Part shown: positions 2,710-29,972 of the stretch, piece by piece
Numbering within the stretch: the stretch's first letter is position 1
Layout of the letters: each line of letters opens with the position of its first letter
Assembly (NCBI GenBank): GCA_038326365.1
Contig: JBBQJY010000001.1
Coordinates: forward strand, 12,128 to 76,127
Length of the DNA stretch: 64,000 nucleotides
Direction of reading: 5' to 3'
Source of the DNA: Candidatus Curtissbacteria bacterium
GTDB lineage: Bacteria; Patescibacteriota; Microgenomatia; Curtissbacterales; GWA2-41-24
Program-made: the position numbers and the translations under genes
Notes under the pieces: model-generated
Seen by the model: only the letters and a program-made list of their open reading frames with translations
The model's database searches: none
What the model was told of the DNA's origin: nothing

Positions 2710-3780
2710 GTGCATTTGACTACCCAAAATCTGCTTAAATTCTCATTTCTTGTTTCAGCTCTTTTTCTACTGAGCACAAAGCTCACATTTGCAACAGTGC
2801 CTTCGGTTGTGACACCGACAACGATCGATGAAAATACCGACCACGCGACTGTCCAATTTAGCGGCCTTAGCCCCAACACTGATTACGAATACTGTGGCGC
2901 CGACTCGCCTTCAACCTGCAATGCTAGGAAAAAAACCATCAAATCCGATAGCTCAGGAACAGTAATCATAGACAATCTGTGCGCGGCCGGAGAACACCTG
3001 CTTGAGCCAAAAAGTGGAGGTTGCGACTCGGGCGACTTCTTTTGGGGAGACAGAACTTACGCAATTAAACTATACACATCTTGGCCAAATGAAATCGGCA
3101 ATGCGTCATTCAAAGTAAAACGGGTTATACCTAGTTTCGATATTACTTCAGATAACGGCTTCAAACCGGGCTCAGCTATAACTGCAAAAGTAAAAGGTAG
3201 CAGAAGGCCGATTGATAGCCCTGACAGAAACGCTTACTTGTTAGAAATTACTGGCAGTCCAAACCCTAGCAATAATTCACTTAAGATTTTTGAGCTGAAT
3301 AACTCAGAAGGAGATTACACTTTTAGCACCCTTTCCATAGCTAGCGGAGACTACACAATATCTTTAACCGGCCAAAATCATGGTTCGGAAGACGGCTTTG
3401 ATTTTGGGAAGATAGGCTTCAAAATAGATACTGCTGGCGGTGGGATAACCAGCGGCAGTGGCCCAACCTCTGGCAGCAACGCAGGCGTTGGTTCCAATCC
3501 CTGTGGCACCACTTGCCCCACAGCCCTAGGCGACCTGCCTCTCAATTTTCAAGAACTCGTCAATACCAAAATCTTACCAGCGGCTATCGGCATGGCCGGC
3601 GGTATTGCCCTAATTCTTATGGTCATTGGCTCAATCAGGATGCTTATGTCCCAAGGCGACCAACAAAAGTTAAACGGCGGTCGAGAAATGTTTGTTGCTG
3701 CTCTGGCGGGTTTGCTTTTCCTAATCTTTTCGACTCTCATTCTCAGGTTTATCGGCATTAATATTATCGGTATAAAATGA
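2710..3780 (+). CDS. T4SS pilin-like protein (VirB2/TrbC-like C-terminal two-TM hairpin) with a roughly 250-aa N-terminal secreted domain
   Basis: Signal peptide, then a C-terminus ILPAAIGMAGGIALILMVIGSIRMLMSQGDQQKLNGGREMFVAALAGLLFLIF that shares the TM-[ST]xGD-x-K-x(3)-AR-x-TM motif of the five downstream paralogs. Confidence 0.5.
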   Translation: MHLTTQNLLKFSFLVSALFLLSTKLTFATVPSVVTPTTIDENTDHATVQFSGLSPNTDYEYCGADSPSTCNARKKTIKSDSSGTVIIDNLCAAGEHLLEPKSGGCDSGDFFWGDRTYAIKLYTSWPNEIGNASFKVKRVIPSFDITSDNGFKPGSAITAKVKGSRRPIDSPDRNAYLLEITGSPNPSNNSLKIFELNNSEGDYTFSTLSIASGDYTISLTGQNHGSEDGFDFGKIGFKIDTAGGGITSGSGPTSGSNAGVGSNPCGTTCPTALGDLPLNFQELVNTKILPAAIGMAGGIALILMVIGSIRMLMSQGDQQKLNGGREMFVAALAGLLFLIFSTLILRFIGINIIGIK

Positions 3781-4457
3781 AAAAACTCTTTATTTTTTTA
3801 TTGGCTTTTGTAGCTTTCCTTCAATTTTCTAATGCGAACATCGCTCATGCCCAAACAGGCTGCCCTGCCCCAGGCTGGACTATCAGAATTCTCAACGCTT
3901 CAGGAAATGATGTAGATGTAGACTTTAGCGGCAAGCCAGCTGGCCACTTAAGCGTTGTGCATATCAGTGGATTTAAGGGTAATTATGACCTACCAATACC
4001 CGATGGCGCTCTCGATATTCATTTCCATGGGATAGATGACATTTACGCAGCAACTATGGTCTTTGCAGGCTGCAATATTTCGAATACTACTAGCTTTACC
4101 ATGCCTCCCGGTGGTGCTGGCCTACCCGGTGGTGGAGGCGGCAAGGCAACCCAATGCGGCTCGTTCGATGCATGTACATCAGGCGGTTTGGCCCCATCAG
4201 GTTTTTCAACCCAAAGCTTTATTACTCAACTCATCACCAAAATTCTTCCAATCGTCATCGGCGTTGGTGGATTCCTGGCAATCATTATGATACTTATTTC
4301 GGCAACACAATTTATAACCTCAAGCGGCAATCCAGAAGCGGCAGCAAGCGCCCGCGGCCGCCTCATTTTTGCAATTGTCGGCTTTGCACTCTTGATCTTG
4401 GCCTTTGCCATAACCAAAGTCATAGACCAAATATTTCTCAAAAGTGGAGCCATTTAA
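3777..4457 (+). CDS. T4SS pilin-like protein (VirB2/TrbC-like) with an N-terminal extracellular domain
   Basis: Signal peptide and C-terminus LISATQFITSSGNPEAAASARGRLIFAIVGFALLILAFAI. The start overlaps the upstream stop by 4 nt (ATGA). Confidence 0.5.
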   Translation: MKKLFIFLLAFVAFLQFSNANIAHAQTGCPAPGWTIRILNASGNDVDVDFSGKPAGHLSVVHISGFKGNYDLPIPDGALDIHFHGIDDIYAATMVFAGCNISNTTSFTMPPGGAGLPGGGGGKATQCGSFDACTSGGLAPSGFSTQSFITQLITKILPIVIGVGGFLAIIMILISATQFITSSGNPEAAASARGRLIFAIVGFALLILAFAITKVIDQIFLKSGAI

Positions 4458-10830: not shown

Positions 10831-11021
10831 AGTGTTAACCTAAATTAAATATTTACTCCATCGCGGGGAAGCGTAGCGAAAATCTACCACTGTACCGCAA
10901 CGGTAACTCAAAAAAGAGAAGTCCGAATACCACGATGGCTAACTAGGTCCCGAGATAGGACACATGCCCATTGCGCACAATGATTGCAAGCCTTCTTGAG
11001 GACTATCAAGGAGGTTTTTTT

Positions 11022-12164
11022 ATGCTTGACAAGCTAGTTGCAAATCCACCGCCAAACATCTCTGAGGGCCAGTTTCGCTTTGATCCATCTCATCCCCCTC
11101 TGGCGAGTAAACAAATTGCTGAAGAACTAATTGATCCAATCCCCGAAGCAATGCTTGCCTACAATGTTCGATTCGATATTAAAGCTTACTGCAATTTGCT
11201 AGACCAAAAATCAACTCACACACACGAAGAATTCATAGCTAAGTTTAATTCCCTCAACGCTTTAACCAGAACAAATATCGAAACTTCAATTGCCGAAAGA
11301 TTCAACGCCGAAATACATCGAGCTTCATACAAACTCAAAGACGGCCAGCTAATCCATGAATCCTACGAGCAACCCTTTTTGGAAATAATCAGACGCGGTC
11401 AAGAATTTAGAGAAAAGTCTGGTTCCCAAGAGATCGATCGCGAAAGAGCCGAACTTGCCGGATTTAAAAAAGTCCAGGAGACACTCGCCAGTGAAAAGCT
11501 ATCAAATGACGCAAAAGTAATTGTCATCTCACCCGTCGGCGGCATTTACGGGCACAATTTCTACGATCTTTACCAAAGAACCGAAGATGGCAAAATTAAT
11601 ATGTCTCGTTACAGCTCAAAGAATTCCTATCAAAAATTTCTAGCAGCCGCTCGGCAAATAGACCCATTTTGTGAACTTCCCGATAATCCATCCGATGCTG
11701 ATTTCTTGGCTCGTCCACTCATAACTTATTTGCCGCCTGAACAAATTCAAACCCTCATGGATCCAGATGAAAAAACAATGAGCCAGGAAGAACTTGAAAA
11801 AATAAAAATAGCTTGGGCTCCAGCAATCGGAGGCTACATAGTAGATTTACTAAAAAATCCAAACACAATAACTCAAGAAAATTATTTAGATATCCTGAGA
11901 TTTGCCCAAGCGGCCAAAAACGGCCAAACTATTTCTGCCAAAGATATTCGCCAAATTTTCTTACCTAGAATAACAACAGCTTGCGGCATATCCGGTTCTC
12001 CCTATTCGGTTGCTGATTTCATAACCAACCCTAACCTCATCCAGGATAGGTATGGATCACTCCAAATCCATTGCCAGGAATGCAACACTAGTTATCCGCG
12101 AAATTTCGGTAAACTCGAAGAAAATTGTCGATACTGCGGCGGCACCAAGGGAATCGTTTGCTAA
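11022..12164 (+). CDS. Hypothetical cytoplasmic protein with a C-terminal CxxC...CxxC zinc-ribbon
   Basis: The ATG at 11022 is preceded by aaggagg at 11008-11014. The C-terminus is CQECNTSYPRNFGKLEENCRYCGG. Confidence 0.5.
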   Translation: MLDKLVANPPPNISEGQFRFDPSHPPLASKQIAEELIDPIPEAMLAYNVRFDIKAYCNLLDQKSTHTHEEFIAKFNSLNALTRTNIETSIAERFNAEIHRASYKLKDGQLIHESYEQPFLEIIRRGQEFREKSGSQEIDRERAELAGFKKVQETLASEKLSNDAKVIVISPVGGIYGHNFYDLYQRTEDGKINMSRYSSKNSYQKFLAAARQIDPFCELPDNPSDADFLARPLITYLPPEQIQTLMDPDEKTMSQEELEKIKIAWAPAIGGYIVDLLKNPNTITQENYLDILRFAQAAKNGQTISAKDIRQIFLPRITTACGISGSPYSVADFITNPNLIQDRYGSLQIHCQECNTSYPRNFGKLEENCRYCGGTKGIVC

Positions 12165-12217
12165 ACCTGCCTTGACTATCGCCTAAATTGTCCCTAATAT
12201 TGATTTAGAGTTTGTCC

Positions 12218-13993
12218 ATGCTTTCTGCCACAAAAATAAAACTGTTGGTTGTTTTACCATTTCTACTTCTTGGCCTCTTTTTTCAACCCAAAATTGCATC
12301 TGCTCAAAGTTACGGTTGGACAATATCGGTTGCTAATGTTTCTGGTACTTCAATTACCTATAATATTACGCCAAACTCCGGTAGCGGATCGGTACTTGTA
12401 TTAACAGACCTTCCATTGGGCGATCCCAACAGAGAATGTACTATTCCACCAAACGTATCCTCATTCACCTGCACTCACCCCGCGGGGACTCATTCGGTCG
12501 AAGTTACATATCTTGGCACTAAACAATCAGCAAACATCTCAGTAACAACTGGAGGAAGTGGTGGTGGTGGAGGAGGAGGAGGTGGAGGTGGAGGTGGACT
12601 CGCTAGCTGTGCTGCTCCGAATCCCGACACAACATCCCGCCAAGCACATGACCTCGTCCTTAAATGCGGTATAGCCAACGGCAGCATGGATAACCTTTAT
12701 TTCACCTTCAGTGAAACAGCCGGCATTCTGGACAGTCTTCAAGTCCTGGTCATGGGCAGTTCTCAACTTCACGAAGAATCAAACAAAGTCACCCAAAACA
12801 CTGGTGCTCTTGCAGGAGCCGCAACACTTGTTGCATCACTCTATAGCCACCCTCCGGCGTCTGGGGTTGAATATTTAGCCGGTGAATTCCAAAAGTTTAA
12901 CCCAACAAAAGACGCTTATGCCCAAACAGGAATCGGCTACGACACACTTCAACCTGTTCAAACCATTTGGGAACTTTTCAGAAACATTTCCTACCTCGGC
13001 TTCGTTATCGTTTTTGTTGTCATTGGTTTTATGATTATGTTCCGAGCACACATATCCCCCCAAGCAGTAGCTACGGTTCAAGATTCATTACCCAGGATCG
13101 TTATCGCACTTGTTCTCGTTACATTCAGTTACGCCATCGCCGGCTTAATGATCGATCTCATGTTCTTGTTTCTGAACGTCATTCTGGGTCTTCTGCCAGT
13201 AACTGACGCATCAAACATTGTCTTCAAAAAAAGTGTTTTCGGCGTCATAACTAGCTCTTGGAAAGACACTTTTGGAACTGTTTTTCATAATGTTCAAGAT
13301 CTTCTCAGTGAGATCATCAAGACTAAATTCTTTGTGGATAAAATTCTTGCCTTCTTCGGGGGCGGTATTGCAGCCCTCGTCGTCGGTATTGCCATGTTTT
13401 TCATAATGTTTAAGGTTTTCCTAATGCTATTAACTGCTTACGTTTCCATTATCCTCTTAACAATCGCAGCTCCATTCTTCTTCCTCTTGCAAGCTTTACC
13501 CGGTAACAACAATGGCATGACTTGGTTTAAACAAATGCTAGCAAATGTGGCCGTTTTCCCAACGGTTGCCATCATGTTCATTCTGGCTGGCTATCTCGGT
13601 GGCATTACGGCACTTGGTGGTAACGACAGTAACCCAGCAATCGGCCAGTCGAGCGGTAACATTGCAAAATTCCCTTTGCTTGCAGGCGATCTGGACCCTA
13701 AAGTTTTGGGGCATCTGGCAGGTATTGGCATTCTACTCATGACGCCAGCCGCGGCTCAACTCGTTAAGGACGCACTCGGTGTCAAGGCTGTAGGGGGCGG
13801 CGCAGCAGGCGCAGCAGCAGCTGGGGCTCTAGGCGCAGGCGCAGCAGTTGCGGGAGCTCCATTTAGGCCAATTCAAGGTGGCTTTGGCAAGGCTACGTCG
13901 GACTATGCTTCAAAAGGACTCTCAACAACAGGCAGGGCAGGGTTTAATAAAGTCAAAGGGGTATTAGGAAGAGGTCCCGGAGGTGATACCTAA
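12218..13993 (+). CDS. Polytopic membrane protein, candidate VirB6/TrbL-like T4SS channel component, with an N-terminal secreted domain, a polyglycine linker and a Gly/Ala-rich tail
   Basis: Signal peptide MLSATKIKLLVVLPFLLLGLFFQPKIASAQS, a GGSGGGGGGGGGGGGGG linker, then at least five hydrophobic helices. It sits next to the pilin, hydrolase and VirB4 genes. I did not recognise a VirB6 signature directly, so this call is by context and topology. Confidence 0.4.
   Translation: MLSATKIKLLVVLPFLLLGLFFQPKIASAQSYGWTISVANVSGTSITYNITPNSGSGSVLVLTDLPLGDPNRECTIPPNVSSFTCTHPAGTHSVEVTYLGTKQSANISVTTGGSGGGGGGGGGGGGGLASCAAPNPDTTSRQAHDLVLKCGIANGSMDNLYFTFSETAGILDSLQVLVMGSSQLHEESNKVTQNTGALAGAATLVASLYSHPPASGVEYLAGEFQKFNPTKDAYAQTGIGYDTLQPVQTIWELFRNISYLGFVIVFVVIGFMIMFRAHISPQAVATVQDSLPRIVIALVLVTFSYAIAGLMIDLMFLFLNVILGLLPVTDASNIVFKKSVFGVITSSWKDTFGTVFHNVQDLLSEIIKTKFFVDKILAFFGGGIAALVVGIAMFFIMFKVFLMLLTAYVSIILLTIAAPFFFLLQALPGNNNGMTWFKQMLANVAVFPTVAIMFILAGYLGGITALGGNDSNPAIGQSSGNIAKFPLLAGDLDPKVLGHLAGIGILLMTPAAAQLVKDALGVKAVGGGAAGAAAAGALGAGAAVAGAPFRPIQGGFGKATSDYASKGLSTTGRAGFNKVKGVLGRGPGGDT
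12553..12600 (+). repeat. Simple (GGN)n repeat encoding a 16-residue polyglycine run
   Basis: ggaggaagtggtggtggtggaggaggaggaggtggaggtggaggtgga, read directly. Confidence 0.75.
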
Positions 13994-13994
13994 T

Positions 13995-16900
13995 TTACCT
14001 GGCAAATACATATTTCAATCCTTGTCGGAAAAACTCAGAACCCCCAAATAATGGCCCTTGCCACCAAATTCTCTTTGCACTTTCAGAAACACCCATTCGC
14101 GCATAAATATCGGCATACTCAGCCAAAAACCTAGCATTTCTAACAGGCAAAATACCGGGCAAGCCTCCCCAGCCCAGATATTCGCGCTTCATCCAGTCTT
14201 TATACTTCACATTTAATCGATTACTTCGAACGGCAAGGTCGATAATTGTCTCCGTATCCGCATGAGGCATATTGTCTACTTCCCCCCACCAAGATTTCCA
14301 ATAAGTACCCAGCCTCTGATGCATCGGTATCACCAGCTTCATCATCGGCTGCAGTCTAACTTCTCGCTTAGAATAAAAATTCTCCAAAGAGAATAACTGT
14401 AAAAACTCCGCATTGTTTGGCTGCTGCAAATAGTGTTGCAGCTTTGGCTTTTCAGGACTCATGAAATTCATCATGGCAGCCCTGTCACCATAAAGATCAA
14501 TCCATCTATATTTCCAGCTATTATCAACTCTAAAAAAATGACTCCACTTACAGTTATCAAACTTAACTTCACCCTGATCCAGGGCTTCTGCGAGGATTGC
14601 CGACTTTGCCCAACCCATTTCTTCCTTATTACCTTTATCGAATTTTTTGATGTTCTTAAAACTATTTGTTTTTCTTTTGATAACTTCTTTTGCCGTTTCA
14701 TTCAATAGCCCGTCAGAATTAATACCTTGTTCCTCGTCCAAAAGGTCGCTGGCAAATCGAACCAGAGTTCGGTTTTGCGGCAACAAGTTTCCATTTTCCC
14801 CAAGCATCTCGTCTTGCATGACATAGTTTGCCTTTTCTACCTTACCGCGAGATTCGTCTATAAAAAATTCCCAGGCGTGGTCAACCATTCTTCCATAGAA
14901 AAAGTCTGTAGATTGGTTGTACACATATCCAGATACTCTCCCCTTGCCACCAGCCGGATTATCTATATTTGGATCCCAAACCCTGATGCCGTCATAATCA
15001 CTCCAAGCCATAACCCAAGCAAGCCTATGAGCATTGTTTACAACCTGGTCGACCAAACCCGTGTCCACCATTTCGATTATTTGTTTATCGCTAAGATTCC
15101 ATTTTTCTTTGTTCTTAACCAGCTCCTCAATCAGTCCACCCCCCGTTGCTACAAGCTCGACGTTTCCATTTGCTTGCTCGACTTTATATTCCCGCTTATT
15201 CCCTACCATCTCACTCTTCCTTAGCCCAACAGCCTCCGCTTGCTCTTTAATTAACCCAAGCATAGTGTTCTCCCTATACCATTTACCTATAGCTTTTTTC
15301 ATATTATCAACACTATAATCATCACCAAGTTCACCTTGTATGGACTCGAGCGCAGCTCTTTCTTCGTCGGTTTTGCCTTTAATTTTCCTGTCTTTCGTCC
15401 AGCTCTCCACAAAGTTCATAAGTAGACGCTCTTTATGGAATCTACCCATGTAAATATTCATTCCGGCGTCCAGCAAATTTACAGAAAGATGCTTCCCTTG
15501 AACATCTTTATTAAATCTTTCAAAATAAACCTCGAAAGTATTGTCCTTAAGGCCCTGAACTACTTTGGAAACAGTCTCAGGATTCATGCTTGCATGCTCC
15601 ATCGTGCTATAGAACTGGTTAATTGCAATAACTGACTCGTACTTTTCCGTCAGTTGCTTCCTGAGCTCAATAGCCCTTTCTTTTTCCTCACCCTCAAGCG
15701 AATCAACAGGTATTCTCAAAACCACCTGTACTGCTCTTTGAATTTTTTGTGATAATTGCTGTTCACCAAAATCAGAGCTTTCAAGAAGCCTCAAAATCCC
15801 GTCTACTGTTTTTTCGCTTTCTTTCCAATCATTTGGCGGCAATTCCGAAGAAATATCCGAAAATCTCAAGTCAAATCCCTGACGATAAACTTGCGCCTTC
15901 CATTTCAATAACTCCGCAAAATCGGGATTTGCATCGACTTCCGTCTCAACAGTTTCGTCAAATATTTCCCGGTAGTCATCGGCTCTACCATAGATACCCC
16001 CCTCTTGTATGGAGTTGACTTGAGAAGCTGAATCTTTTATTCTCCTAAAAAGTGCAGCCAATTGCTCTGGCTTGCTCCTCTTCTCGAGTTCTCGGAATTT
16101 ACTATCTACATGAGCCCTTGCCTCTTCAACAATTTTCTCATCGTCGTCGGACACAATAGACTGAAAAAGATTCAGTTTTTCAGACCCGAGTAATGTGTAT
16201 TTTGATTTAAGTTCGTTAATAGCTAGCGACATTTGTGACAATATGTCATAATTCTTAGGATTTTCGGGGTCTGCAAGAATCATACGAGCTTCTTCGATTT
16301 GGCCTCGATATTCTGTCAATAGTATTCCGTATTGATCGCGCATGCTGGTTTCTCCATTTTCTGTATCCACTCCCTTTTCTTTCAGATACAACAGTCGCTT
16401 AACGACCTCTTCAAGATTTACATGAACTGGAACACGTCTCTTTTCAATCCTACCTTCGTTATTTGGTACCCTCTTGACTACATACATTTCTAAAGGTTCG
16501 TCCCAGTAAATTTCACCGTTTCCCCCACGAATGGCTGGTAGGTTTTTCCCTATCTCGGTGCTTTTAGGCTTGCCCGTCCAGCCAGTCAGCTCAACTGCTC
16601 CATGCTCGGCAGCCCATTTCCAGCGCCTAACGACAGCCCAATTTTTCCACTTATCTTTAGGTACAGTAATTTCGAATCCCCGACCGCGAAAAAAAGCCTC
16701 AGCTGCCGCAGGATCGTCTATATATTCTCCGCGCTTCGTGGTTTCGATTATGATCCTAGGTAGAGCATCGGCGTAAACCAAAATAGCCCCCTCTTCTTTT
16801 GCCAGTGCTTCCATTTTTTCTTCTGTTACTACCTTTAGCTTCTTTCTGATTTCATCTGCCTTCAGAGCAGACTCGCCACGGTGTTTGCGCAAGGATTCTG

Positions 16901-17213
16901 CTATTACCTCTTCAGAGTTCATGCCCACAATCTTAGATTGATCTGCTCCGCTCTCAATAAGCGCAGTTCTCAAACTACTTAAGCTTTCACTGGAAACAGC
17001 TACTTGGTTTGAAGTGTCAAAAGCCTCACTCAATTTCTCAGTGTGTTCTCGGGCATTAAATTGTTTGTTTGGTTTCTTTTTAGCACCTCCGTCACCAGGT
17101 TCAGCTCCTTTGTTTTCGTCTGGAGTCCGCAAGCTTCCATCAGGCATAGTATTTCCCCCTTTATACTCAGCGTACAAGCTGGAGGGGTCAAATGCAATAA
17201 AATCTTCTTTCAT
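13995..17213 (-). CDS. Large (1072 aa) soluble protein of unknown function, rich in charged and Trp residues, inside the T4SS-like locus
   Basis: The ORF is uninterrupted with no TM segments, no Walker motifs and no recognisable catalytic motifs. It is divergent from the ATPase-winged-helix regulator gene. Confidence 0.55.
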   Translation of the reverse strand: MKEDFIAFDPSSLYAEYKGGNTMPDGSLRTPDENKGAEPGDGGAKKKPNKQFNAREHTEKLSEAFDTSNQVAVSSESLSSLRTALIESGADQSKIVGMNSEEVIAESLRKHRGESALKADEIRKKLKVVTEEKMEALAKEEGAILVYADALPRIIIETTKRGEYIDDPAAAEAFFRGRGFEITVPKDKWKNWAVVRRWKWAAEHGAVELTGWTGKPKSTEIGKNLPAIRGGNGEIYWDEPLEMYVVKRVPNNEGRIEKRRVPVHVNLEEVVKRLLYLKEKGVDTENGETSMRDQYGILLTEYRGQIEEARMILADPENPKNYDILSQMSLAINELKSKYTLLGSEKLNLFQSIVSDDDEKIVEEARAHVDSKFRELEKRSKPEQLAALFRRIKDSASQVNSIQEGGIYGRADDYREIFDETVETEVDANPDFAELLKWKAQVYRQGFDLRFSDISSELPPNDWKESEKTVDGILRLLESSDFGEQQLSQKIQRAVQVVLRIPVDSLEGEEKERAIELRKQLTEKYESVIAINQFYSTMEHASMNPETVSKVVQGLKDNTFEVYFERFNKDVQGKHLSVNLLDAGMNIYMGRFHKERLLMNFVESWTKDRKIKGKTDEERAALESIQGELGDDYSVDNMKKAIGKWYRENTMLGLIKEQAEAVGLRKSEMVGNKREYKVEQANGNVELVATGGGLIEELVKNKEKWNLSDKQIIEMVDTGLVDQVVNNAHRLAWVMAWSDYDGIRVWDPNIDNPAGGKGRVSGYVYNQSTDFFYGRMVDHAWEFFIDESRGKVEKANYVMQDEMLGENGNLLPQNRTLVRFASDLLDEEQGINSDGLLNETAKEVIKRKTNSFKNIKKFDKGNKEEMGWAKSAILAEALDQGEVKFDNCKWSHFFRVDNSWKYRWIDLYGDRAAMMNFMSPEKPKLQHYLQQPNNAEFLQLFSLENFYSKREVRLQPMMKLVIPMHQRLGTYWKSWWGEVDNMPHADTETIIDLAVRSNRLNVKYKDWMKREYLGWGGLPGILPVRNARFLAEYADIYARMGVSESAKRIWWQGPLFGGSEFFRQGLKYVFAR

Positions 17214-17308
17214 GTCGACAAGTTTAATAGAGAAAGCTCCATTTGCCTTGACTCTTGCCTAACAATTAGCTAACAAGAAGAAAAAGACCTTATAATTGGA
17301 ATTACGCA

Positions 17309-18586
17309 ATGGGAACATTTGAATTACAATTTCCAGGAAATTTTCGCCAGGCAGAAATCGACAAGATTTTGACCTTTGTACAAACCGGCAAATTTTGCCA
17401 ATTAATTTCTACCCCTGGAAGCGGAAAAGCGACTCTTCTGAGGCTGTTGGCCTACAATCCCAATGTTTTAAAATTTCATTTGAAAGAAAAGGGAGCTTCT
17501 ATTAATTTCATTTATCTAAATCTTTTAGACCTTGAAAACTACCAAGAGATTGAAATTCTCAAATACATCCTGCTTGCTCTGAACCAAAAAGCGCAAAGCG
17601 ATGACCTTCTGGCACTAAACAAACAATTAATGGAAATTGTTCACCAGCAAGCAAGCCTTGGCCAAACTACAGTTTTTCTCTTTGACCATTTTGACGAGTA
17701 TCAGAATCAGTTACCTCCGTCGTTTTTTCAGCTTCTAAGGAGTGCGAATAGACAAGCAAGATACAAATTTTCCACCGTCTTTGCAACCAGAAGAGATCTA
17801 GCAGAGTTAGTTGACCCAACAACGATCAAAGATTTTTATGATTTTTTTACTGACAACGCTATTTATATGAAGATCTATGACCCATCCGCCATAGAATTTA
17901 TGGTCTCGCAAATTGAGGCTATATTTAAAAAGAAGATCCCCATAGCGGACAAAGCAAGCATTATTCACCAAACGGGAGGCCATACTAAACTAACGAAGAT
18001 AGTGACAGAAATGCTTATACGCCAAAATCTGTCTCTAGATAATCAGCTGCTTACGAAACCAACAATTTCTTCTACCCTCCAAGAGCTGTGGCTTTTCTTA
18101 ACAGCCCAAGAACAGCAGACCCTCTATCAAATTGCCAATGACGAATACAAAAATCAGCCAGACGAAACAAATAAACTAGAAGCCTTTGGTCTTGTCAAAC
18201 GAAACCAAACACCAGCTAAGGGTTTTGAATTAACCATCCCTTTATTTAAAGAATACATAAAGAACACTATCCCTCAGCTCACCCCAGAAAAGATTACATA
18301 TAACGAGCAAACCAGAGAGATAACCAAAGGTGCAAAAATAATCTCTGATTTGCTTTCGCCTCAAGAAAACCGCTTGCTCAAGTTTTTAATCGAAAATCAA
18401 AACAAGGTTATTCAAAGAGACGAAATCATCAAAGCCGTTTGGCTAGACTCTCAAAATGCCCAAGGCATCTCCGACGAGGCAATTGATCAAATGATTTTTA
18501 GGCTCAGAAAAAAAATTGAAGATGATCCCAACCAACCAGAACGACTGTCAACCGTAAAAGGTCAAGGTTTTCGCTTCAAAGCTTAA
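17309..18586 (+). CDS. Putative transcriptional regulator: N-terminal P-loop NTPase domain fused to a C-terminal OmpR/PhoB-type winged-helix DNA-binding domain
   Basis: Deviant Walker A ISTPGSGKATLL and Walker-B-like TTVFLFDHFDE. The C-terminus QENRLLKFLIENQNKVIQRDEIIKAVWLDS...IDQMIFRLRKKIEDDPNQPERLSTVKGQGFRF is a textbook OmpR-family trans_reg_C fold. Confidence 0.6.
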   Translation: MGTFELQFPGNFRQAEIDKILTFVQTGKFCQLISTPGSGKATLLRLLAYNPNVLKFHLKEKGASINFIYLNLLDLENYQEIEILKYILLALNQKAQSDDLLALNKQLMEIVHQQASLGQTTVFLFDHFDEYQNQLPPSFFQLLRSANRQARYKFSTVFATRRDLAELVDPTTIKDFYDFFTDNAIYMKIYDPSAIEFMVSQIEAIFKKKIPIADKASIIHQTGGHTKLTKIVTEMLIRQNLSLDNQLLTKPTISSTLQELWLFLTAQEQQTLYQIANDEYKNQPDETNKLEAFGLVKRNQTPAKGFELTIPLFKEYIKNTIPQLTPEKITYNEQTREITKGAKIISDLLSPQENRLLKFLIENQNKVIQRDEIIKAVWLDSQNAQGISDEAIDQMIFRLRKKIEDDPNQPERLSTVKGQGFRFKA

Positions 18587-18590
18587 TACT

Positions 18591-20420
18591 TTATGCAGAA
18601 AACTTAGCCTCTGCTTCTTGCGCTTTTTTGCGCATCTCCAGAAGCTCTTCCGGGTTTGTTGTGACTAATGAGTGCTCCTCAGGTGAAGCAATTACTCGAA
18701 TCGCCACGTGATTTGGCCCGGCAAAAAATATTCCTTCTCCAACGTCTGCCGCCAAAAGCAAATGCCGCTCTCCTTCAGTCAGATAAAAAACGTCAGTCAG
18801 TTTATCAATAGCAGCCGGCGATTGCTTCATCAGTATCTGAATTGACGAGTTAGTAACAATAGCCTTCCCGTAGTCGGTTTCCAAAAAGTCTTCGACGTCC
18901 TGAGAAATTGTTGTCAGGCCTAGGTAATATTTTCTTGCCCGCTTGGCAATGGAGTACATAAACGTTGCGCTGTCCGGATGCTGCATCATATACCAAGCCT
19001 CGTCCACAATTAATATTCTCTTCCTGATGTCATTTTTAATGCGCGTCCAGATAAAGTCTAAAATTAGATATATGGCAATAGGTCGCAAAGATTCTTCCAT
19101 GTTTTTAATTGAAAAAACAGTAAAAGTATTCCTAATGTCTAAGTTTGAATGCTGGTTAAAAATACCGATTAAGGACCCCTTAACGAACTTCTCGAGCCGG
19201 TCCGCAAGTCCCTTGGCTGCTTCTTCCTCCATCCCCAAAAAAGCTTTATAAAGGTCTTCCATCAGCGGTGGCTCATTTTTCTGACTAGCCGGCTCCGGCG
19301 TTATTCCTTTAGCTTTATAAGTTGCAACCAGAGCCCTGTCTAAAATTGCGTCCTCAGTCGGCGTCATCGCACCCATTATCACTTTAAAAAATCCGTGCAG
19401 TGAAAGTATTTTGAGCCCCAATTCGTTTTCACCCTCTTCGTATACTCCCGAAAGGTCAAATGGATTAATCTTCACCTGGCTATCAAAATCAAAAGAAATG
19501 TATTCCCCGCCAATTGCCTCACAAAGATTTTTGTATTCTTCCTCCGGGTCAATGACAATTATTTCTGTTCCGAACATCAAAGACCTCAAGGCTTCCAGCT
19601 TAACCATGTAAGATTTTCCGGCACCGGACTTCGCAAAAATTACCGAATTAGCATTTTCTTGAGTAAACCGATCAAAAATTACCAGCGACCCGTTGTGTTC
19701 GTTAATCCCATACATAATGCCTGTGCTGGAAGTTAAGGACGAAGAAATAAATGGGAATGTTGTCGCCAAGCTAGTCGTATCCATATTTCTGGTGATATAT
19801 AGGTGGTCTGTCGCCTGTGGCAACGTAGTTTTAAACGCTTCTTCCATTTGCAACGAAGCGTGTTTGGGAACCAAAAGCAGTGCTCCCATTGTCGACTCCA
19901 CTTGCTTACAAATTGTATTTAACTCTTCCAATGTTTCGGCCGGAACTGAAACATAAAGCCCGAATTGGAAAAAACGCTCAGAACCTTTTACCAACTCTTC
20001 CTGTAAAACTTGCGCATCCTCCAAAGCCGCCGAAACGGTCGGATCAATTACGTGGCCATGCTGAATATCAGAAGCAATCGTCGCCTCCATTTCCGTAATT
20101 TTGCGCTTCAAGTCATCAAGCACACCTTTGGCCTCAACCGGATACTGATACATGGATATTTCCAATGTGTGTTCGAAGTTAATAAGCGGCGAGAGCCAAT
20201 TAGCCTGCACATATCGAGGATAACCAACTACGAATAGTGTCCGCCAATAAGTCGATCCGATTTTGATGTAGTCGAAATCAATCTCAATGGCCGGCGGCGC
20301 AATAATGTCTTTGACTGAGACCACTCCTCGAGCCAAAGTACTAGCCCATTGTTGCTCTTTTGCAGTCAAACCCAAATCGGCATTTTTTTCCTTTTTCCCA
20401 AAGATATTAATTATATTCAT
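18591..20420 (-). CDS. virB4: VirB4/TrbE/ConE-family T4SS ATPase
   Basis: Walker A SVIFAKSGAGKSYMV and the VirB4-type Walker B RILIVDEAWYMM. The N-terminus DYIKIGSTYWRTLFVVGYPR is typical of Gram-positive-type VirB4. Length is 609 aa. Confidence 0.8.
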   Translation of the reverse strand: MNIINIFGKKEKNADLGLTAKEQQWASTLARGVVSVKDIIAPPAIEIDFDYIKIGSTYWRTLFVVGYPRYVQANWLSPLINFEHTLEISMYQYPVEAKGVLDDLKRKITEMEATIASDIQHGHVIDPTVSAALEDAQVLQEELVKGSERFFQFGLYVSVPAETLEELNTICKQVESTMGALLLVPKHASLQMEEAFKTTLPQATDHLYITRNMDTTSLATTFPFISSSLTSSTGIMYGINEHNGSLVIFDRFTQENANSVIFAKSGAGKSYMVKLEALRSLMFGTEIIVIDPEEEYKNLCEAIGGEYISFDFDSQVKINPFDLSGVYEEGENELGLKILSLHGFFKVIMGAMTPTEDAILDRALVATYKAKGITPEPASQKNEPPLMEDLYKAFLGMEEEAAKGLADRLEKFVKGSLIGIFNQHSNLDIRNTFTVFSIKNMEESLRPIAIYLILDFIWTRIKNDIRKRILIVDEAWYMMQHPDSATFMYSIAKRARKYYLGLTTISQDVEDFLETDYGKAIVTNSSIQILMKQSPAAIDKLTDVFYLTEGERHLLLAADVGEGIFFAGPNHVAIRVIASPEEHSLVTTNPEELLEMRKKAQEAEAKFSA

Positions 20421-20429
20421 ATCGAAGAT

Positions 20430-21527
20430 TTATCCTATTTTCTGCCCCCCAACAACGTTTTGCACTGGAACAGTCGCAATTCCGGCGTTTACCGCACCTC
20501 GCATCTGGCTGGCTCGGGCAATTGCTTCCTGTAAGTCATTTAGCGCTTGCGACGATTGGCCTGGGACCGAAGTGACAGCTGGCACAATAGGCGGCACATC
20601 TCCTTCTCCTGCAGCACTAGTTACGGACGTAGGCAAGATAATTGGTTGGGGCGTCGCAATTGGCGAAGGCACTTCGCCGACAAGCGGGCTTGCGGCGCTT
20701 TGGGCCAATATTGGCTCCCCTGCAACTCCGGTATTGGCAATAACCGGAGGTTGAGCATACTGACCCGCACCTGATTCAATTGTAGGCTCAGCAACAACAG
20801 CAACCCGCACATCAGGCGCTTGAATCGGCACAGGCTCGGGCGCAGGTGTTGGAACCTCCACCGCCGGCTCCACCAGAGGAGTCGTGTAGCTTGCAGCATC
20901 AAGTATTACTCTCTGAGTTCCTGTCGGAGCAGGATTATAAATATCGTAATATAATTCGATTAGCTCTTGAGTCGTCAACTGTCTCGAGAAAAGTCCAAGT
21001 CGTGCAGTTTGCTTAATAATATGATCTCTCTTTGGCGCAAGCGCTGATTTGGCGTCAGCAATGAGCTCCGCCTTACCCTTGGCATTGTGAGAATCTGATT
21101 TCTTAAAACTCTTGACACCTAGCTCCAAAGGCGAAAAGTGCAATATCAAATAAAAACGCTTATCTAGAATTGTCTTTTGTTGAACTGTTGATTGAATAAA
21201 TTCCCTATAACTCTTTATCTGCAATCTGAGATCCGGATTGGGCTGATTTCTCTCAGCCTCAACTAAATGCTGATAGTAAGCTGTAATATCGGCTTTTTTT
21301 GAACGAATCAAAACCTGCAAAGGGAAGGTTAGTGAATTAAGTAGCGCGCCATAAGCATAAATCGTCGCATCCTGTTCGGCTTCCGAAAGAATATCAAAAT
21401 TTACGGCAGTTGTAGACATCACCATTGAAACCCAACCTGTTTTTATAATCACCAAGTCATCAGTAATGTCCTCAATATCCAAGTGATCCTGGGTGGAAGC
21501 CTTAATCTTATCGCCTGCAGAAGCCAT
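20430..21527 (-). CDS. Hypothetical protein translationally coupled between the VirB3-like and VirB4 genes, with a C-terminal tail rich in Pro/Ala/Val
   Basis: There is a 1-nt overlap with the upstream gene and a 9-nt gap to virB4. No TM segment. The PAPEPVPIQAP low-complexity tail is evident. Confidence 0.45.
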   Translation of the reverse strand: MASAGDKIKASTQDHLDIEDITDDLVIIKTGWVSMVMSTTAVNFDILSEAEQDATIYAYGALLNSLTFPLQVLIRSKKADITAYYQHLVEAERNQPNPDLRLQIKSYREFIQSTVQQKTILDKRFYLILHFSPLELGVKSFKKSDSHNAKGKAELIADAKSALAPKRDHIIKQTARLGLFSRQLTTQELIELYYDIYNPAPTGTQRVILDAASYTTPLVEPAVEVPTPAPEPVPIQAPDVRVAVVAEPTIESGAGQYAQPPVIANTGVAGEPILAQSAASPLVGEVPSPIATPQPIILPTSVTSAAGEGDVPPIVPAVTSVPGQSSQALNDLQEAIARASQMRGAVNAGIATVPVQNVVGGQKIG

Positions 21528-23101
21528 TAATTTTTCACTTGTCCCTGAAGCCCTAAGGGGGCCAAGATCTCTCCTTTCAAACTTATTGATGTCGGCACAA
21601 ACGATGCCTTCTCACTCTCAATTTCTATCGTGTAATTACCGTCAGAAAGCGGTGTGGCCGACAAAAATTGGCCCAACTTGTTTGTTTTTAAGGCGCGAAT
21701 CGGAATTCCACCAGCATCCCGAACAACCAGTACTGCTCCTTCAAGAGGCGTTCCAATGGAATCTGTTACCATCCCTGAAAGCACATTAGGATTACTGGTT
21801 AGAGGAATTATTTGGGCACCAATATTGTTGGCCACACTTTTAATCTGCTTTTTATCTGTTATCGAGAATTTTGTTTGATCATCATCTTTTCGCTTAGGCG
21901 CCTTTTGGGTCCCCTGGGCAACTGCAGCAACCATCCCACCCACAGCCTCCGGTGCTCTGACTTGGGCTTTGGGTAAAACCTGACTAAGATCGGCTTCTGT
22001 CAATTTGTTTGCAAACTGCACACTGCCCACAGTAGAGTTGGTTTCGTTGGGTAAAACCACCTGTGGTGTATCGTCCTCAAAATTAAACCTCCTTGCCAAC
22101 TCGTCAGAAATTTCAAACCGACGCTCACCTCGTATTGGCAGCTTAGAGAGATCAAAATTCTCAGGCGGAGCAAAGTGCAATTTTCTTACCCTAGTCTGAC
22201 CAACTCCCCGAACCAATCTTATTTTGTTGTCAGGCTCTTTTAAGGAGATAATATTGTCCACAGAAAAGTTTGTGTCAGATGCCAAATGGGAAAGTGGTGG
22301 CGACTTTTTTGGAACCGACTCCATCCTTCGACGTCTCAGTCTATCTTCCAGTCCTTTGATAACAAATGGTTGGGCATGTTTTGCAATTCTTGGTTCGGTT
22401 GCGCCAACTATCGGCAATTGTTTGCGATTCCCAACAACAACTTTCGACTTCTCGTCAAATGCTCGAATTGCAACTGGTGTTTCAATTTTGATGCTGTCCG
22501 GCCCAACCTCGCGCGGCACAGGTTGACCAACTTTTCTGCTTACTCCGCTATTCGTATTTTTTGCGCTTGGCCAAATAATCGGAGGCGGGACGCTTCCTGC
22601 CCCCACATCGTCTCCTCCCAAGTCCAACTGAAAAATTGCTTTGTCCTCACGCATGTCGAGCGGTGACTCGTTATCCTTAGGAAGAGATCTCAAATAAGCA
22701 ATCAGCCTTTCGCGCCCTCTTTCGGTTATTTCTTCCGGAATTTTTTGCTCTTGTGTCTGGGGACGTATAACTACACTCAGAAATTCTGGTAAATTTCTCT
22801 CCTTTACCCAAATTCGTTGCGTGGGCGCAAAAATTGCGTGAATAAAAGCAACGATCCACTTGTCAAATGGCCTTCCTTGCACCGGAACCAAAGCAACGAA
22901 CAACCCAATTCCGCCAATCAATACAGAAAGAGGAATCCTAACTATAGCAGCGGTTTGGGAGAAGAAAATAAAACCCGCTACAACCATCGGTCCTACTAAA
23001 AACATAAATTGCCTGACTGTTAAGTTGCCAAAAAGTTTAAACTGAAATGAAGCTATGTGCTGCGGGACAGGATGTTGTTCCATAGGTTTGAGTACCAGCA
23101 A
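21527..23101 (-). CDS. Membrane protein with a VirB3-like N-terminal two-TM region fused to a large extracytoplasmic region that ends in a CarboxypepD_reg-like beta-sandwich
   Basis: The N-terminus FGNLTVRQFMFLVGPMVVAGFIFF resembles the VirB3 L-x-RPA-hF-GVP motif. It is the first gene of the operon ending in virB4. Confidence 0.4.
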   Translation of the reverse strand: MLVLKPMEQHPVPQHIASFQFKLFGNLTVRQFMFLVGPMVVAGFIFFSQTAAIVRIPLSVLIGGIGLFVALVPVQGRPFDKWIVAFIHAIFAPTQRIWVKERNLPEFLSVVIRPQTQEQKIPEEITERGRERLIAYLRSLPKDNESPLDMREDKAIFQLDLGGDDVGAGSVPPPIIWPSAKNTNSGVSRKVGQPVPREVGPDSIKIETPVAIRAFDEKSKVVVGNRKQLPIVGATEPRIAKHAQPFVIKGLEDRLRRRRMESVPKKSPPLSHLASDTNFSVDNIISLKEPDNKIRLVRGVGQTRVRKLHFAPPENFDLSKLPIRGERRFEISDELARRFNFEDDTPQVVLPNETNSTVGSVQFANKLTEADLSQVLPKAQVRAPEAVGGMVAAVAQGTQKAPKRKDDDQTKFSITDKKQIKSVANNIGAQIIPLTSNPNVLSGMVTDSIGTPLEGAVLVVRDAGGIPIRALKTNKLGQFLSATPLSDGNYTIEIESEKASFVPTSISLKGEILAPLGLQGQVKN

Positions 23102-23363
23102 GAAGTTACATCAGAGGAACTACATTGTAAGGACGAATTCCATGAGACTTACAAATAGGACTGCTGATATGAATGCAAATTCTACCTCCGCCGCTAATCG
23201 AACTCACCATAACATATGAAACTCGTTCGTCAAAGACCATTAATTTAGCTTCCAAATTTAAGTTTTCACAACAAACTCATGTCTCCCAAAGATATGGTTA
23301 GGTCGACAATCGAAACATCATAAAAATTTCGTTTTGCTCATTTGATATAGTAGAAGTAATAAA

Positions 23364-27280: not shown

Positions 27281-28426
27281 TCAGTTCTGGAGCCGAACAG
27301 GCATTATGATATGAAAGAAAGATGCAGAGCCAGAAGCTGCAGTAATTTTCCCAGGGTTTAAACTCTCATTCATTTCAAAACCAACTTCCTCTCCATCAAT
27401 GACACTAAGTACTTCAAGTAAATATCTAAAATTAAAGGCTATTTCCCCTCCACGACCCTTCAAATTAAATGGGATTTTCGAGTCACTAGAGCCCACCTGC
27501 GCCGTGTTTGCACTGACAGTTAGGAACTGTGCCTTCCCTTCTACACCGAGCTTCATCCTTATTATATTTCCCGAATCCCTTGCAAAAATCGATGCGATTT
27601 TAATGACCCGCACAAGCTCTTCCTTATTTATCTTGGCACTTGTTGAAAAGTTGCTGGGGATTAACTTGTCCCATGCAGGATAAGTGCCCTCAATAAGTCT
27701 CGTTGTAAACTCAACCCGACCAACCTCAAAAACTGCCTGGTTAAGATCATCAGATAAAAGCAATATTACATTTGCCTCTTTTCCTTCAACACTCTTCTGC
27801 TCCTCAACAATTTTGGCAACCTCAGAAAAAGCCTTGGAGGGAATAATAAACGACACCCCTCCTATATCCGCTCCAGCTGTTACCTCAATATGGGCATGCC
27901 CCAACCTAAAGCCATCAGTTGCAACAAGAGTTAAACCCTTTTTGCTAAGTTGACAAAGAACCCCCGTCAAAATCGGTCTACTTTCATCAACTGCCGCACA
28001 AAAAGCAACCTTGCCCACACAATTTATTAAATCAACTGGTTTAAGCTCAATCCGTTTACCTCCGACTATTTTGGGGATGGCTGGGAACTCTTCGGGTCCC
28101 ATTGTGGAAAGCCTTGCATTGAAGTCACCTGAGGAGATTAATAGTTCCTCACCAAGTTTTTCAACAGAGATAGTTCCTCCAACTAACTGCGAGATAAATT
28201 CAACCAGAGCTCGACCTACAACTGTAATCCCCCCTTCTCTCTCCACTTTCGCTTCAACCTCAACCCTACACGCTGTTTCCAGGTTTGTTGTAATTATCTC
28301 TAGTTTTTTACCACTAGACCTCAAAAGTACATTAGAAAGAATGGGCAAATTTGCCTTTAGCATTAGCGAGCGCGTGGCTACATTGAGTGCTCGTAAAAAG
28401 TCAGATTGTTCTAAAAAAACCTTCAT
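27281..28426 (-). CDS. dnaN: DNA polymerase III beta sliding clamp
   Basis: 381 aa, immediately downstream of dnaA. Three-domain clamp sequence starting MKVFLEQSDFLRALNVATRSL. Confidence 0.9.
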   Translation of the reverse strand: MKVFLEQSDFLRALNVATRSLMLKANLPILSNVLLRSSGKKLEIITTNLETACRVEVEAKVEREGGITVVGRALVEFISQLVGGTISVEKLGEELLISSGDFNARLSTMGPEEFPAIPKIVGGKRIELKPVDLINCVGKVAFCAAVDESRPILTGVLCQLSKKGLTLVATDGFRLGHAHIEVTAGADIGGVSFIIPSKAFSEVAKIVEEQKSVEGKEANVILLLSDDLNQAVFEVGRVEFTTRLIEGTYPAWDKLIPSNFSTSAKINKEELVRVIKIASIFARDSGNIIRMKLGVEGKAQFLTVSANTAQVGSSDSKIPFNLKGRGGEIAFNFRYLLEVLSVIDGEEVGFEMNESLNPGKITAASGSASFFHIIMPVRLQN

Positions 28427-28640: not shown

Positions 28641-29972
28641 TTAAATGTTGATAGTTTCTCTAAGCCTTGATACTTCATCAGCAAACTTTTGGTTTTGAGA
28701 AATTTTAATGCGAACTTTATTTAAAGAGTGGATAACAGTTGAATGATCACGCCCGAAGCAAGAACCCACCTCATCCAAAGACAAAGAAAGTTCGAGCCTC
28801 AAAAAATACATTAGAATTTGTCTGGCACAAACCAAAGAAGCCATTCGAGAAGAACTTTTTAACTCTCCAATATTTGTCTTAAAGTGGCCGCAAACAACGT
28901 CAATAATCTGATCTTTGGTAGTAGTCTTTTTGTTACTGACTGCTTTAAATTGGGTATTTTCAAACGAACCGGTCATTTTTATCTGGGCAAGCACATTTGT
29001 TAACATTCCTTCAAGCTCTCTTGCGCCTCCTTGACAATTTGAAGCAATAAACTCAACTGTTTCCGAAGTAAGTTTTACTTTGCGCTCTGCACATTTAATC
29101 CTGATTATTCCCACCCTGAGTTCATAATCTGGAAAACCAACGTCAGCACTCATACCGCCCATTAACCGACTAACAAGCCTTTCATTTAGGCGCCCCAACT
29201 CTTTAGGGTGCTTGTCCGAGGCAACCACTAACTGCTTACCCGAAAGATAAAGCTCGTTGAAGGTATGAAAAAATTCATCCTGCGTGCTTTCTTTGCCTGC
29301 CAAAAATTGGATATCATCAACAATTAGCAAATGAACGCTTCTATATTTTGAGCGAAACGCACTTTGGGTTTTATTCCTTAGAGACTCTAAATAATCATTA
29401 GTAAATTTTTCGGCAGTAACGTACAAAATTTTAGCATCCTCGTATTTGGCCAGAACCTCGTTAGCAACTGCCTGAAGAAGATGAGTTTTGCCAACACCGG
29501 AGGGGCCGTAAATCACCAAAGGGTTGTAAACTCTGGCAAGTTCACTGGAAACTTGAGAGGCTGCCAGATAAGCTAGGTTATTAGAAGGGCCCACTACAAA
29601 GTTATCAAAAGTGTGATTGGGGTTAATTGAGTCCGCATTTTTCAAAGGAGCAAAATATTGAGGCGCAATTCCCGAAAATAAAGGGGTTCTTTCAGCAGTT
29701 TGTTCAATCTTCTGCGAAACCACAAACAACACCCTGTCCCTTGCCAGATTTTTTTCCAAAAGAACCTGTTCAATTTTTGAAAGATATCTTTTTTCAATTT
29801 GTTCTTTCAAAAAAGAATTTTTCACTCCAACAACCAAAAGGTTCTGATTCTCACCTTTTTTGTAATCCATAAGGTAAGATCCTGCAAACCAGGTCCGAAA
29901 AGTTGACGACGAAATAGAAAGTTTCAGGCCACTGAGAATGTCTCCCCAGACCTTTTGTCCATCTTTATACAT
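28641..29972 (-). CDS. dnaA: Chromosomal replication initiator DnaA
   Basis: Walker A GPSGVGKTHLL, Walker B LLIVDDIQFLAGK, and domain IV SLDEVGSCFGRDHSTVIHSLNKV. Confidence 0.95.
   Translation of the reverse strand: MYKDGQKVWGDILSGLKLSISSSTFRTWFAGSYLMDYKKGENQNLLVVGVKNSFLKEQIEKRYLSKIEQVLLEKNLARDRVLFVVSQKIEQTAERTPLFSGIAPQYFAPLKNADSINPNHTFDNFVVGPSNNLAYLAASQVSSELARVYNPLVIYGPSGVGKTHLLQAVANEVLAKYEDAKILYVTAEKFTNDYLESLRNKTQSAFRSKYRSVHLLIVDDIQFLAGKESTQDEFFHTFNELYLSGKQLVVASDKHPKELGRLNERLVSRLMGGMSADVGFPDYELRVGIIRIKCAERKVKLTSETVEFIASNCQGGARELEGMLTNVLAQIKMTGSFENTQFKAVSNKKTTTKDQIIDVVCGHFKTNIGELKSSSRMASLVCARQILMYFLRLELSLSLDEVGSCFGRDHSTVIHSLNKVRIKISQNQKFADEVSRLRETINI

Follow-up and report, generated by a model that had tools for sequence, protein, structure and literature searches.

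What controls a type IV secretion-like locus in bacteria with very few recognisable regulators, as is the case for the Patescibacteria (the Candidate Phyla Radiation, CPR)? The question is raised here by a 64,000-nucleotide stretch of a Candidatus Curtissbacteria genome (GenBank assembly GCA_038326365.1, contig JBBQJY010000001.1, positions 12,128 to 76,127 of the forward strand), hereafter the window, in which a patescibacterial type IV secretion-like locus occupies ~1–27 kb and includes a gene for a 425-residue putative regulator. A preliminary description, made from the letters of the window alone, had singled out this gene as encoding a P-loop NTPase domain fused to a C-terminal OmpR/PhoB winged helix, with no receiver domain. 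In the interpretation preferred here, to which a probability of roughly 55% is assigned, the protein would be a one-component transcription factor in which the OmpR/PhoB winged helix is controlled by an ORC/Cdc6-STAND-like AAA+ module, not by a phospho-receiver, and which acts through nucleotide- or ligand-set oligomers on DNA repeats with an 11-bp period.

The open reading frame (ORF) of the regulator is a genuine coding frame rather than a product of chance, as 243 homologues, mostly full length and at 36–60% identity, were retrieved from 5.8 billion proteins. The domain composition given in the preliminary description is supported by both profile and fold searches. At the C-terminus, the Pfam profile Trans_reg_C (PF00486) matches residues 349-423 with E=7e-19 and 68.1 bits, far above its cut-off of 26.2, and the domain presents the complete OmpR/PhoB winged-helix fold, namely an N-terminal β-sheet, three helices including the recognition helix, and a β-hairpin wing at its C-terminal end. 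Outside this domain, the resemblance to response regulators ends: Response_reg has no match in the regulator in Pfam and NCBIfam profile searches, the NCBIfam response-regulator models cover only residues ~325-425 with scores far under their cut-offs, and solved OmpR-family structures align only with the last ~100 residues. A degenerate receiver domain at the N-terminus was also considered and is ruled out by the profile and fold searches, in which the N-terminal fold proves to be that of an AAA+ protein of the STAND/ORC-like kind.

In the AlphaFold2 (AF2) model of the regulator (predicted local distance difference test, 88.2; predicted template modelling score, 0.74), the N-terminal part shows the three-part module of AAA+/STAND proteins, which comprises a nucleotide-binding domain, a helical lid, and a winged helix. 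As modelled, the regulator is thus an AAA+ core with a lid and a winged helix of the ORC/Cdc6-STAND type, followed directly by the OmpR winged helix, the linker between the internal winged helix and the Trans_reg_C domain being only about 5 residues long. The fold search matched the wheat NB-ARC resistosome with a score of 15.9 over 280 residues, followed by MuB (14.8), TnsC (13.8), CED-4 (13.7), Cdc6/ORC (12-14), and MalT (10.8). At the profile level, nSTAND1, NACHT, and NPHP3_N are weak Pfam matches (E~0.005-0.009), some relatives of the regulator pass the cut-off of AAA_22, and GerE/LuxR, TPR, and BTAD have no Pfam match in the regulator.

With Cdc6/ORC, MuB, and TnsC among the best structural matches, the protein might instead be a DNA-loading or DNA-processing ATPase of one of these types, either one that prepares DNA for the secretion machine by marking or loading it or one that acts near the replication origin. 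The position of the locus, about 10 kb from dnaN and dnaA, would suit such a function, as would the observation that patescibacterial type IV systems are mostly devoid of a relaxase (PMC12102498). Nevertheless, the catalytic residues are degenerate (see below), which argues against a motor or a loader, the output domain belongs to the classical OmpR winged helices, which bind promoters, the sole conserved DNA motif stands in a promoter region, and there is no transposase or relaxase adjacent to the regulator; hence, a loading or processing function is considered very improbable.

The search for the same architecture in other genomes, which the preliminary description had called for, revealed a family with conserved neighbours, so that the protein is no singleton. 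The few named homologues belong to Candidatus Curtissbacteria, Levybacteria, or the "Patescibacteria group"; 406 regulator loci were confirmed when a single genome of each species was scanned, and the N-terminal 325 residues alone retrieve 395 clusters (50% identity level, E<=1e-3), nearly all of 400-470 amino acids. Members sampled down to 23-25% identity still carry the C-terminal Trans_reg_C domain, the recognition helix of which is almost invariant across the family, and the family as a whole is found mostly in Curtissbacteria, Levybacteria, and other Microgenomates. As a separate observation, one metagenome contig (L088, 1456-9075) holds three paralogues of ~405-423 amino acids ending in Trans_reg_C within 8 kb, in a genomic context that is apparently different; the one paralogue looked up has weak AAA_22/AAA_16 matches, and the cluster indicates that the family is capable of local expansion.

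The two-domain unit also occurs in rare larger relatives, either behind a Pkinase domain or in front of TCAD9 and TIR domains, and at one non-CPR locus it adjoins a TCAD9 gene. These distant fusions and neighbours, together with the weak nSTAND1 and NACHT matches, would be expected if the protein were a STAND sensor of the conflict or defence type that had become linked to the secretion locus by chance. The regulator, however, has no effector domain, and its PADLOC matches are weak and partial (best E=4e-05, with no stretch passing on its own); its position in the secretion locus is strictly conserved across the Microgenomates, beside its own promoter block. A defence role is therefore held to be the least probable of the explanations weighed here. 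Kaur et al. 2020, in their treatment of conflict systems, mention the coupling of kinases to winged helix-turn-helix (HTH) domains and not this module, and our literature search found no paper describing the regulator family or any regulator of a patescibacterial secretion locus.

The deviant Walker A (PGSGKAT) and the Walker B (VFLFDHFDE) noted in the preliminary description were both read in the sequence, and their conservation was counted in 83 non-redundant members of the family. The scaffold of the P-loop is kept almost without exception (P36 in 81/83, G37 in 83/83, and G39 in 82/83), as are the Walker B aspartate (D126; Asp in 74 members and Glu in 8), R162 within an "ATNRPD"-like sensor-1 segment (NRP/RRD; 80/83), and the GGH of the lid at residues 223-225, which includes G224 and H225 and is nearly invariant. 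The motifs do not, however, take their canonical form. Instead of GxxxxGK[ST], the window reads S-TPGS-GKA-T, and position 41, at which Ser or Thr is expected, is Ser in 54 members and Ala in 21, with Ala in the clade of the window. Where hhhhD[DE] would be canonical, 81 of the 83 members carry His or Arg behind the hydrophobic stretch and the aspartate; in the window protein, His stands directly after the Walker B Asp, and acidic residues are found only at +3 and +4.

Several of these observations weigh against a nucleotide-controlled switch. The Walker A lysine at position 40 is Lys in 37 members, Arg in 43, and Gln in 3; position 127, at which the catalytic Glu is expected, is Arg in 64 and His in 17, and is never Glu; and residues 26-167 of the regulator score 26.3 bits against the Pfam family AAA_22, which has a cut-off of 27. 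With the lysine replaced by Arg or Gln in 46/83 members and no catalytic Glu, the protein may bind no nucleotide at all. It could then be a pseudo-ATPase scaffold, in which nucleotide binding has been lost and the module serves as a constitutive platform for oligomerisation or partner binding, the whole protein being an ordinary repressor or activator that is constitutive or controlled by a partner; the Ala after the lysine position in the window clade and the sub-threshold AAA_22 match point in the same direction. What this explanation can hardly accommodate is the near-invariance of the PGxG, D126, the sensor-1-like R162, and the lid GGH over deep divergence, a pattern that is difficult to account for if the pocket holds no ligand, and an Arg in place of the Walker A Lys can still contact phosphates, as is known from Walker A mutants. 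In our reading of the alignment, the pocket appears to be under selection and the hydrolytic residues do not. Invariant P-loop glycines combined with degenerate catalytic motifs are suggestive of a nucleotide-binding switch and not of an active ATPase, and the loss of binding altogether is considered unlikely, albeit the strongest of the competing explanations. The nucleotide-dependent control proposed in the preliminary description is accordingly plausible as binding or as switching, though not as hydrolysis.

A DNA-binding protein of this kind calls for a site, and a candidate is present upstream of the regulator gene, in a conserved block with the consensus gCTTGATATTTAC-cTTACAA-nnnn-CTTACAA-(T)nnn-cTTAyAn. 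The block comprises two strong direct repeats and a weaker third, all of which follow a single 7-mer consensus at an exact 11-bp period; in the window, it occupies 17247-17276. Repeat 2, which was not used for site selection, is still conserved at its core (T in 57/58, A in 54/58, and C in 53/58), and the repeat pair, scored as a dimer, reaches >=12 bits at the expected place in 75/83 loci compared with ~1% of control windows. The extended 11-mer CTTGAYAYTWA was counted 50 times across 1.4 Mb of loci, and because the block accounts for 35 of these occurrences, it is no general promoter motif. Domains of the OmpR/PhoB family dimerise head to tail on direct repeats separated by one turn of the helix, and the almost invariant recognition helix of the family would find its match in this conserved DNA motif. 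The repeat unit resembles the OmpR half-sites of the ompC C1 site, TTTACATTTT-GAAACATCTA, in which TTTACA and GAAACA are set at a 10 bp spacing (PMC2586830). Covariation of the recognition helix with the repeat variant (CTAACA versus CTTACA) was also considered; it is fully confounded with phylogeny and was not used.

The distribution of the block is less favourable to the regulator as its sole owner. Among the 75 loci with a block, it lies directly upstream of the regulator in 35, farther upstream in 3, and upstream of an inserted PF05635-type gene preceding the regulator in 30; in the other 7, it is the regulator that has been inverted, with the block remaining by the large divergent gene and pointing at the 3' end of the regulator. 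These seven loci make the block at least as much the control region of the large gene, and it is tied to that gene at least as closely as to the regulator. Nor is the motif spread over the secretion genes: upstream of prgI, virB4, the orf593 homologue, and dnaN, the repeat pair shows no convincing enrichment across loci (for prgI, 3/54 at >=11 bits versus 1.4% of controls). Within the 64-kb window, no second repeat pair exists at up to 2 mismatches, the only site being 17259-17276, and position weight matrix matches of >=11 bits elsewhere fall inside genes. In addition, the repeats can be parsed as promoter hexamers, either TTGATA-N18-TACAAT or TTTACA-N18-TACAAT, so that part of their conservation could be promoter function. 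All of these points count against the interpretation of the repeats as an operator of the regulator.

The inserted genes deserve a remark of their own. In L005 (9577-9972) and ~30 other loci, and not in the window, a gene for a four-helix-bundle protein of 120-135 amino acids, belonging to PF05635 (23S_rRNA_IVP type), lies between the block and the regulator. From this gene to the ATG of the regulator extend 40-60 nt of short tandem repeats, the unit of which is 7-9 nt and differs between loci (AACAATn, CTAGTnG, AATTTGT, or TTTTGAn), and similar gene-plus-repeat insertions are found upstream of prgI in several loci.

Another explanation of the block would be that it consists of nothing but back-to-back leaderless promoters, contains no operator, and leaves the true targets of the regulator elsewhere, e.g., at a second conserved non-coding element that exists upstream of prgI. 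The geometry of the promoters bears directly on this. In most loci outside the Curtissbacteria, the rightward promoter reads as a -35 TTGATA, an 18-nt spacer, and a -10 TACAAT that coincides with repeat 2, and the ATG of the regulator often follows 6 nt past TACAAT, which predicts a leaderless transcript; leftward, most of 56 loci have a minus-strand TAnnnT hexamer that keeps a constant distance to CTTGATA and stands 7-9 nt ahead of the large gene's start codon. On the other hand, spacers are not normally conserved, yet repeat 1 sits in one; the three repeat units, exactly 11 bp apart from start to start, conform to a single 7-mer consensus; over 2.8 Mb of strand sequence, CTTGAYAYTWA has ~15 occurrences that lie away from the block; and in the Curtissbacteria, repeat 2 is poor as a -10 (TAACAA or TTACAG) yet remains conserved, with a separate TATAAT downstream. 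A block of promoters without an operator thus seems improbable, to a degree slightly greater than the pseudo-ATPase scaffold.

The downstream hexamer of the Curtissbacteria lies 9-10 or 18-21 nt past the start of repeat 2, in two classes that are about one helical turn apart, and 6-18 nt upstream of the start codon of the regulator; TATAAT or GATAAT was found at the same relative place in all 12/12 Curtissbacteria-type loci checked. A generic promoter scan passed over the TATAAT of the window because no -35 is present at 16-18 nt, and such a promoter and terminator scan of 17000-18800 gave counts equal to the shuffled expectation. The preliminary description was correct in placing this TATAAT only 12 nt before the ATG, and the very short leader that it deduced is supported by the comparative data, which point to leaderless or near-leaderless starts for both divergent genes. 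Relative to a start driven by the TATAAT, the window repeats are situated at about -33 and -44, from which either repression or activation would be possible; in the ancestral layout, the repeats overlap the spacer, the -10, and the start site of the regulator promoter, and repression is therefore predicted.

The other gene that this region would govern is the large divergent one, which, as had been stated, is divergent from the regulator, with an intergenic region of 95 nt. In at least 45 loci, a minus-strand gene for 874-1732 amino acids has its start 28-45 nt away from the block, and the TAnnnT hexamer so close to its start codon predicts that it, too, is leaderless, its promoter consisting of a -10 without a recognisable -35. 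Searches of Pfam, NCBIfam, and PDB gave no match for the encoded protein, and PADLOC gave only one to SspC, which is marginal and partial (E=0.0023); a search for its homologues returned 2 matches, swamped by low-complexity words. The gene is always present, yet between the Curtissbacteria-type proteins and the others, no homology is detectable past about 30 N-terminal residues, which indicates fast evolution, and the pattern would fit a surface or host-contact protein.

The secretion-like locus that surrounds these genes confirms a further claim of the preliminary description, as prgI, a traC/TrsD-like gene, virB4, and pilins are all nearby; the regulator is convergent with the VirB4/TraG-type ATPase gene, and the gap of 4 nt reported between them corresponds to 18587-18590 between the two stop codons. 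The locus also contains pilin-like (VirB2-like) genes at 2710-4457, an M23 peptidase gene, and a gene for a polytopic membrane protein (12212-13993) upstream of the large gene, and it abuts dnaN (27281-28426) and dnaA (28641-29972). No histidine kinase gene occurs among the neighbouring ORFs of the window scanned against Pfam. In a sample of 82 non-redundant related loci, from which those with enough flanking sequence were used for each comparison, the orf593 homologue (a conserved polytopic membrane protein) is present in 60/61 loci with enough upstream sequence, and prgI or virB4 is present in 33/37 loci with 10 kb covered on both sides. Three distant members have an identical gene order by gene look-up, and the neighbours are kept over a range of 32-60% identity, including loci in which the regulator or the prgI-virB4 segment has been inverted. 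The commonest layout runs from the regulator through the pilins to prgI-traC-virB4, all co-directional; the convergent layout of the window, with its inverted prgI-virB4 segment, is common to four of the loci (L001, L008, L012, and L016).

An MPF-FATA-like type IV locus near dnaA has been described in Patescibacteria (PMC12102498). According to the summary in that paper, the type IV secretion-like locus is indispensable for epibiotic growth in the single lineage for which genetic tests exist. The locus of the window resembles the one described in having virB4, prgI, and VirB2-like pilins beside dnaN and dnaA. As a means of control, that account suggests only a gene-dosage effect from the position near the replication origin, and it makes no mention of a regulator, OmpR, a winged helix, or a DNA-binding protein.

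Taken together, these data allow a mechanism to be proposed. In STAND/AAA+-HTH regulators of the MalT type, multimerisation driven by nucleotide or ligand loads the DNA-binding domains onto repeated boxes. AfsR likewise loads its DNA-binding domains onto repeats through multimerisation (PMC10936776). By analogy with both, whether the N-terminal module has nucleotide or ligand bound would determine how the regulator oligomerises; head-to-tail oligomers would then position their winged helices on two to three cTTACAa/CTAACAa repeats, 11 bp apart. Given its degenerate catalytic residues, the module would probably be a slow or non-hydrolysing binding switch. Binding at this two-way promoter would autoregulate the regulator gene and would also set the expression of the large divergent gene, the -10 of which has no -35. 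Gene linkage suggests that the regulon may extend to the secretion operon.

This proposal offers a concrete handle on the regulation of a CPR secretion locus, in that it provides a conserved DNA-binding protein resident in the locus, a control region of ~75 bp with candidate operator repeats, and predicted leaderless starts. The half-degenerate P-loop, in turn, presents a natural case for how ATPase-HTH switches work without hydrolysis. A bolder extension, which is regarded as speculative and rather doubtful, is that the family would be a dedicated master switch of the patescibacterial secretion-like locus that reads the nucleotide pool of the cell (ATP/ADP or other) and, through its oligomers on the 11-bp repeats, chooses between the back-to-back leaderless promoters. 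CPR bacteria must obtain nucleotides from their host, and such a switch, if real, would couple the host-derived energy supply to the secretion apparatus and to the expression of a large, variable partner protein.

The features of the window are collected in Table 1, and some further observations were made in the same locus. Upstream of prgI, at ~23195-23265 (-) in the window, where the prgI ORF starts at 23101, and in most related loci, there is a second, different conserved non-coding element, which has no Rfam match and is probably an operon promoter, an operator, or a 5' leader. Its Curtissbacteria type reads TTGTGAAAA..GAGGCTA..CTTTCCGCCCCTTGTTTCATATGGTATGGTG, followed in some loci by a hairpin, and its Levybacteria type reads TTTTCACr-N~40-TTTGACCTACTTTGATAATCTTGCAATGAGATTTTTCACGTTATAC, with TTTGAc/TTTGAt/cTTGCA units 10 bp apart. 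A match to a cobalamin riboswitch lies inside the locus at 10849-10940 (+), with an AdoCbl-II score of 38.3 bits (cut-off, 36.5), and an unannotated 397-amino-acid gene (10971-12164), whose product has C-terminal CxxC...CxxC motifs, begins shortly after it; roughly syntenic matches to cobalamin riboswitches occur in L003 at 1903-2005 (+), L013 at 3479-3560 (-), and L011 at 4188-4326 (-), and the scores of these three are 40.5, 41.8, and 56.3 bits. A B12 riboswitch is unexpected in a CPR host-interaction locus. Lastly, a GGAGGT-type tandem repeat at 12551-12598 (+), within the ORF 12212-13993, encodes a run of 14 glycines.

Table 1. Features of the regulator gene, its control region, and adjacent genes, in positions of the window
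Feature	Position	Strand	Remarks
Regulator gene	17309..18586	+	ORF with ATG start, 425 aa: AAA+/STAND-like module, then C-terminal OmpR/PhoB winged helix
Nucleotide-binding α/β core	17309..17878	+	residues ~1-190; strands 30-33, 65-70, 120-125, 154-160, 184-186
Deviant Walker A, PGSGKAT	17414..17434	+	residues 36-42, read in sequence
Walker B-like, VFLFDHFDE	17672..17698	+	residues 122-130, read in sequence
Helical lid and internal winged-helix domain	17879..18274	+	lid residues ~191-245, winged helix ~246-322
OmpR/PhoB-type winged-helix DNA-binding domain	18284..18583	+	residues ~326-425; recognition helix ~389-403
CTTGACT, window version of the gCTTGATATTTAC element	17247..17253	+	-35-like TTGACT at 17248-17253
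Direct repeats CTAACAA (two), candidate operator of the regulator	17259-17265, 17270-17276	+	starts 11 bp apart
TATAAT, candidate -10 of the regulator gene	17291..17296	+	12 nt before ATG
TAAACT, candidate -10 of the large divergent gene	17221..17226	-	7 nt before its ATG (17213)
Large divergent gene, likely co-regulated target	13995..17213	-	1072 aa; starts beside the conserved block
virB4-like ATPase gene	18591-20420	-	Pfam P-loop_TraG/AAA_10
traC/TrsD-like gene	20430-21527	-	NCBIfam TrsD
prgI	21527-23101	-	Pfam PrgI; part of the type IV secretion-like operon 18591..23101

How unusual, then, is such a regulator? OmpR-type domains without a receiver are found in ToxR, CadC, HilA, and the SARPs, including AfsR; consequently, the missing receiver, on which the preliminary description had based its judgement of an unusual protein, has precedents, and what does stand out is the C-terminal winged helix behind a sensor-less AAA+ module. 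The regulator lacks the defining features of a response regulator, of a SARP, and of a LAL regulator, and it has the fold of the AAA+/STAND proteins without their canonical motifs. With the OmpR/PhoB response regulators, it shares the fold and sequence family of its C-terminus and candidate tandem repeats one turn apart with a TTACA-type half-site; unlike them, it has neither a receiver nor a phospho-acceptor Asp.

The closest structural match to residues 1-320 is provided by archaeal Orc1/Cdc6 and the PF01637 "archaeal ATPase" family (e.g., P. abyssi PABY2304, PDB 2qen), at 12-15% sequence similarity; those proteins end at their winged helix and have the canonical GK[ST] and DE, whereas the regulator adds a second winged helix of the OmpR type. 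MalT and the LAL regulators have the same order as the regulator, with a STAND ATPase first and the DNA-binding domain at the C-terminus, but their output is a LuxR-type HTH preceded by a sensor; the regulator differs in its OmpR-type winged helix, in having no arm or sensor (SUPR/TPR) domain, and in its degenerate catalytic motifs. AfsR and the other large SARPs of Streptomyces, which comprise an OmpR-type domain, BTAD, NOD/NB-ARC, and TPR (PMC10936776), likewise combine an OmpR-type winged helix and a STAND/AAA+ oligomerisation module in one polypeptide without a receiver, and the binding of AfsR to direct repeats at promoters is paralleled by the candidate direct repeats described here. In AfsR, however, the winged helix stands at the N-terminus ahead of BTAD, with a TPR sensor after the NOD; here, it is C-terminal, with no BTAD or repeat sensor, in a protein of 425 amino acids. 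The family is hitherto undescribed; with it, the known ATPase-HTH regulators of the MalT and AfsR types gain a compact architecture in which an AAA+/NOD module precedes an OmpR winged helix.

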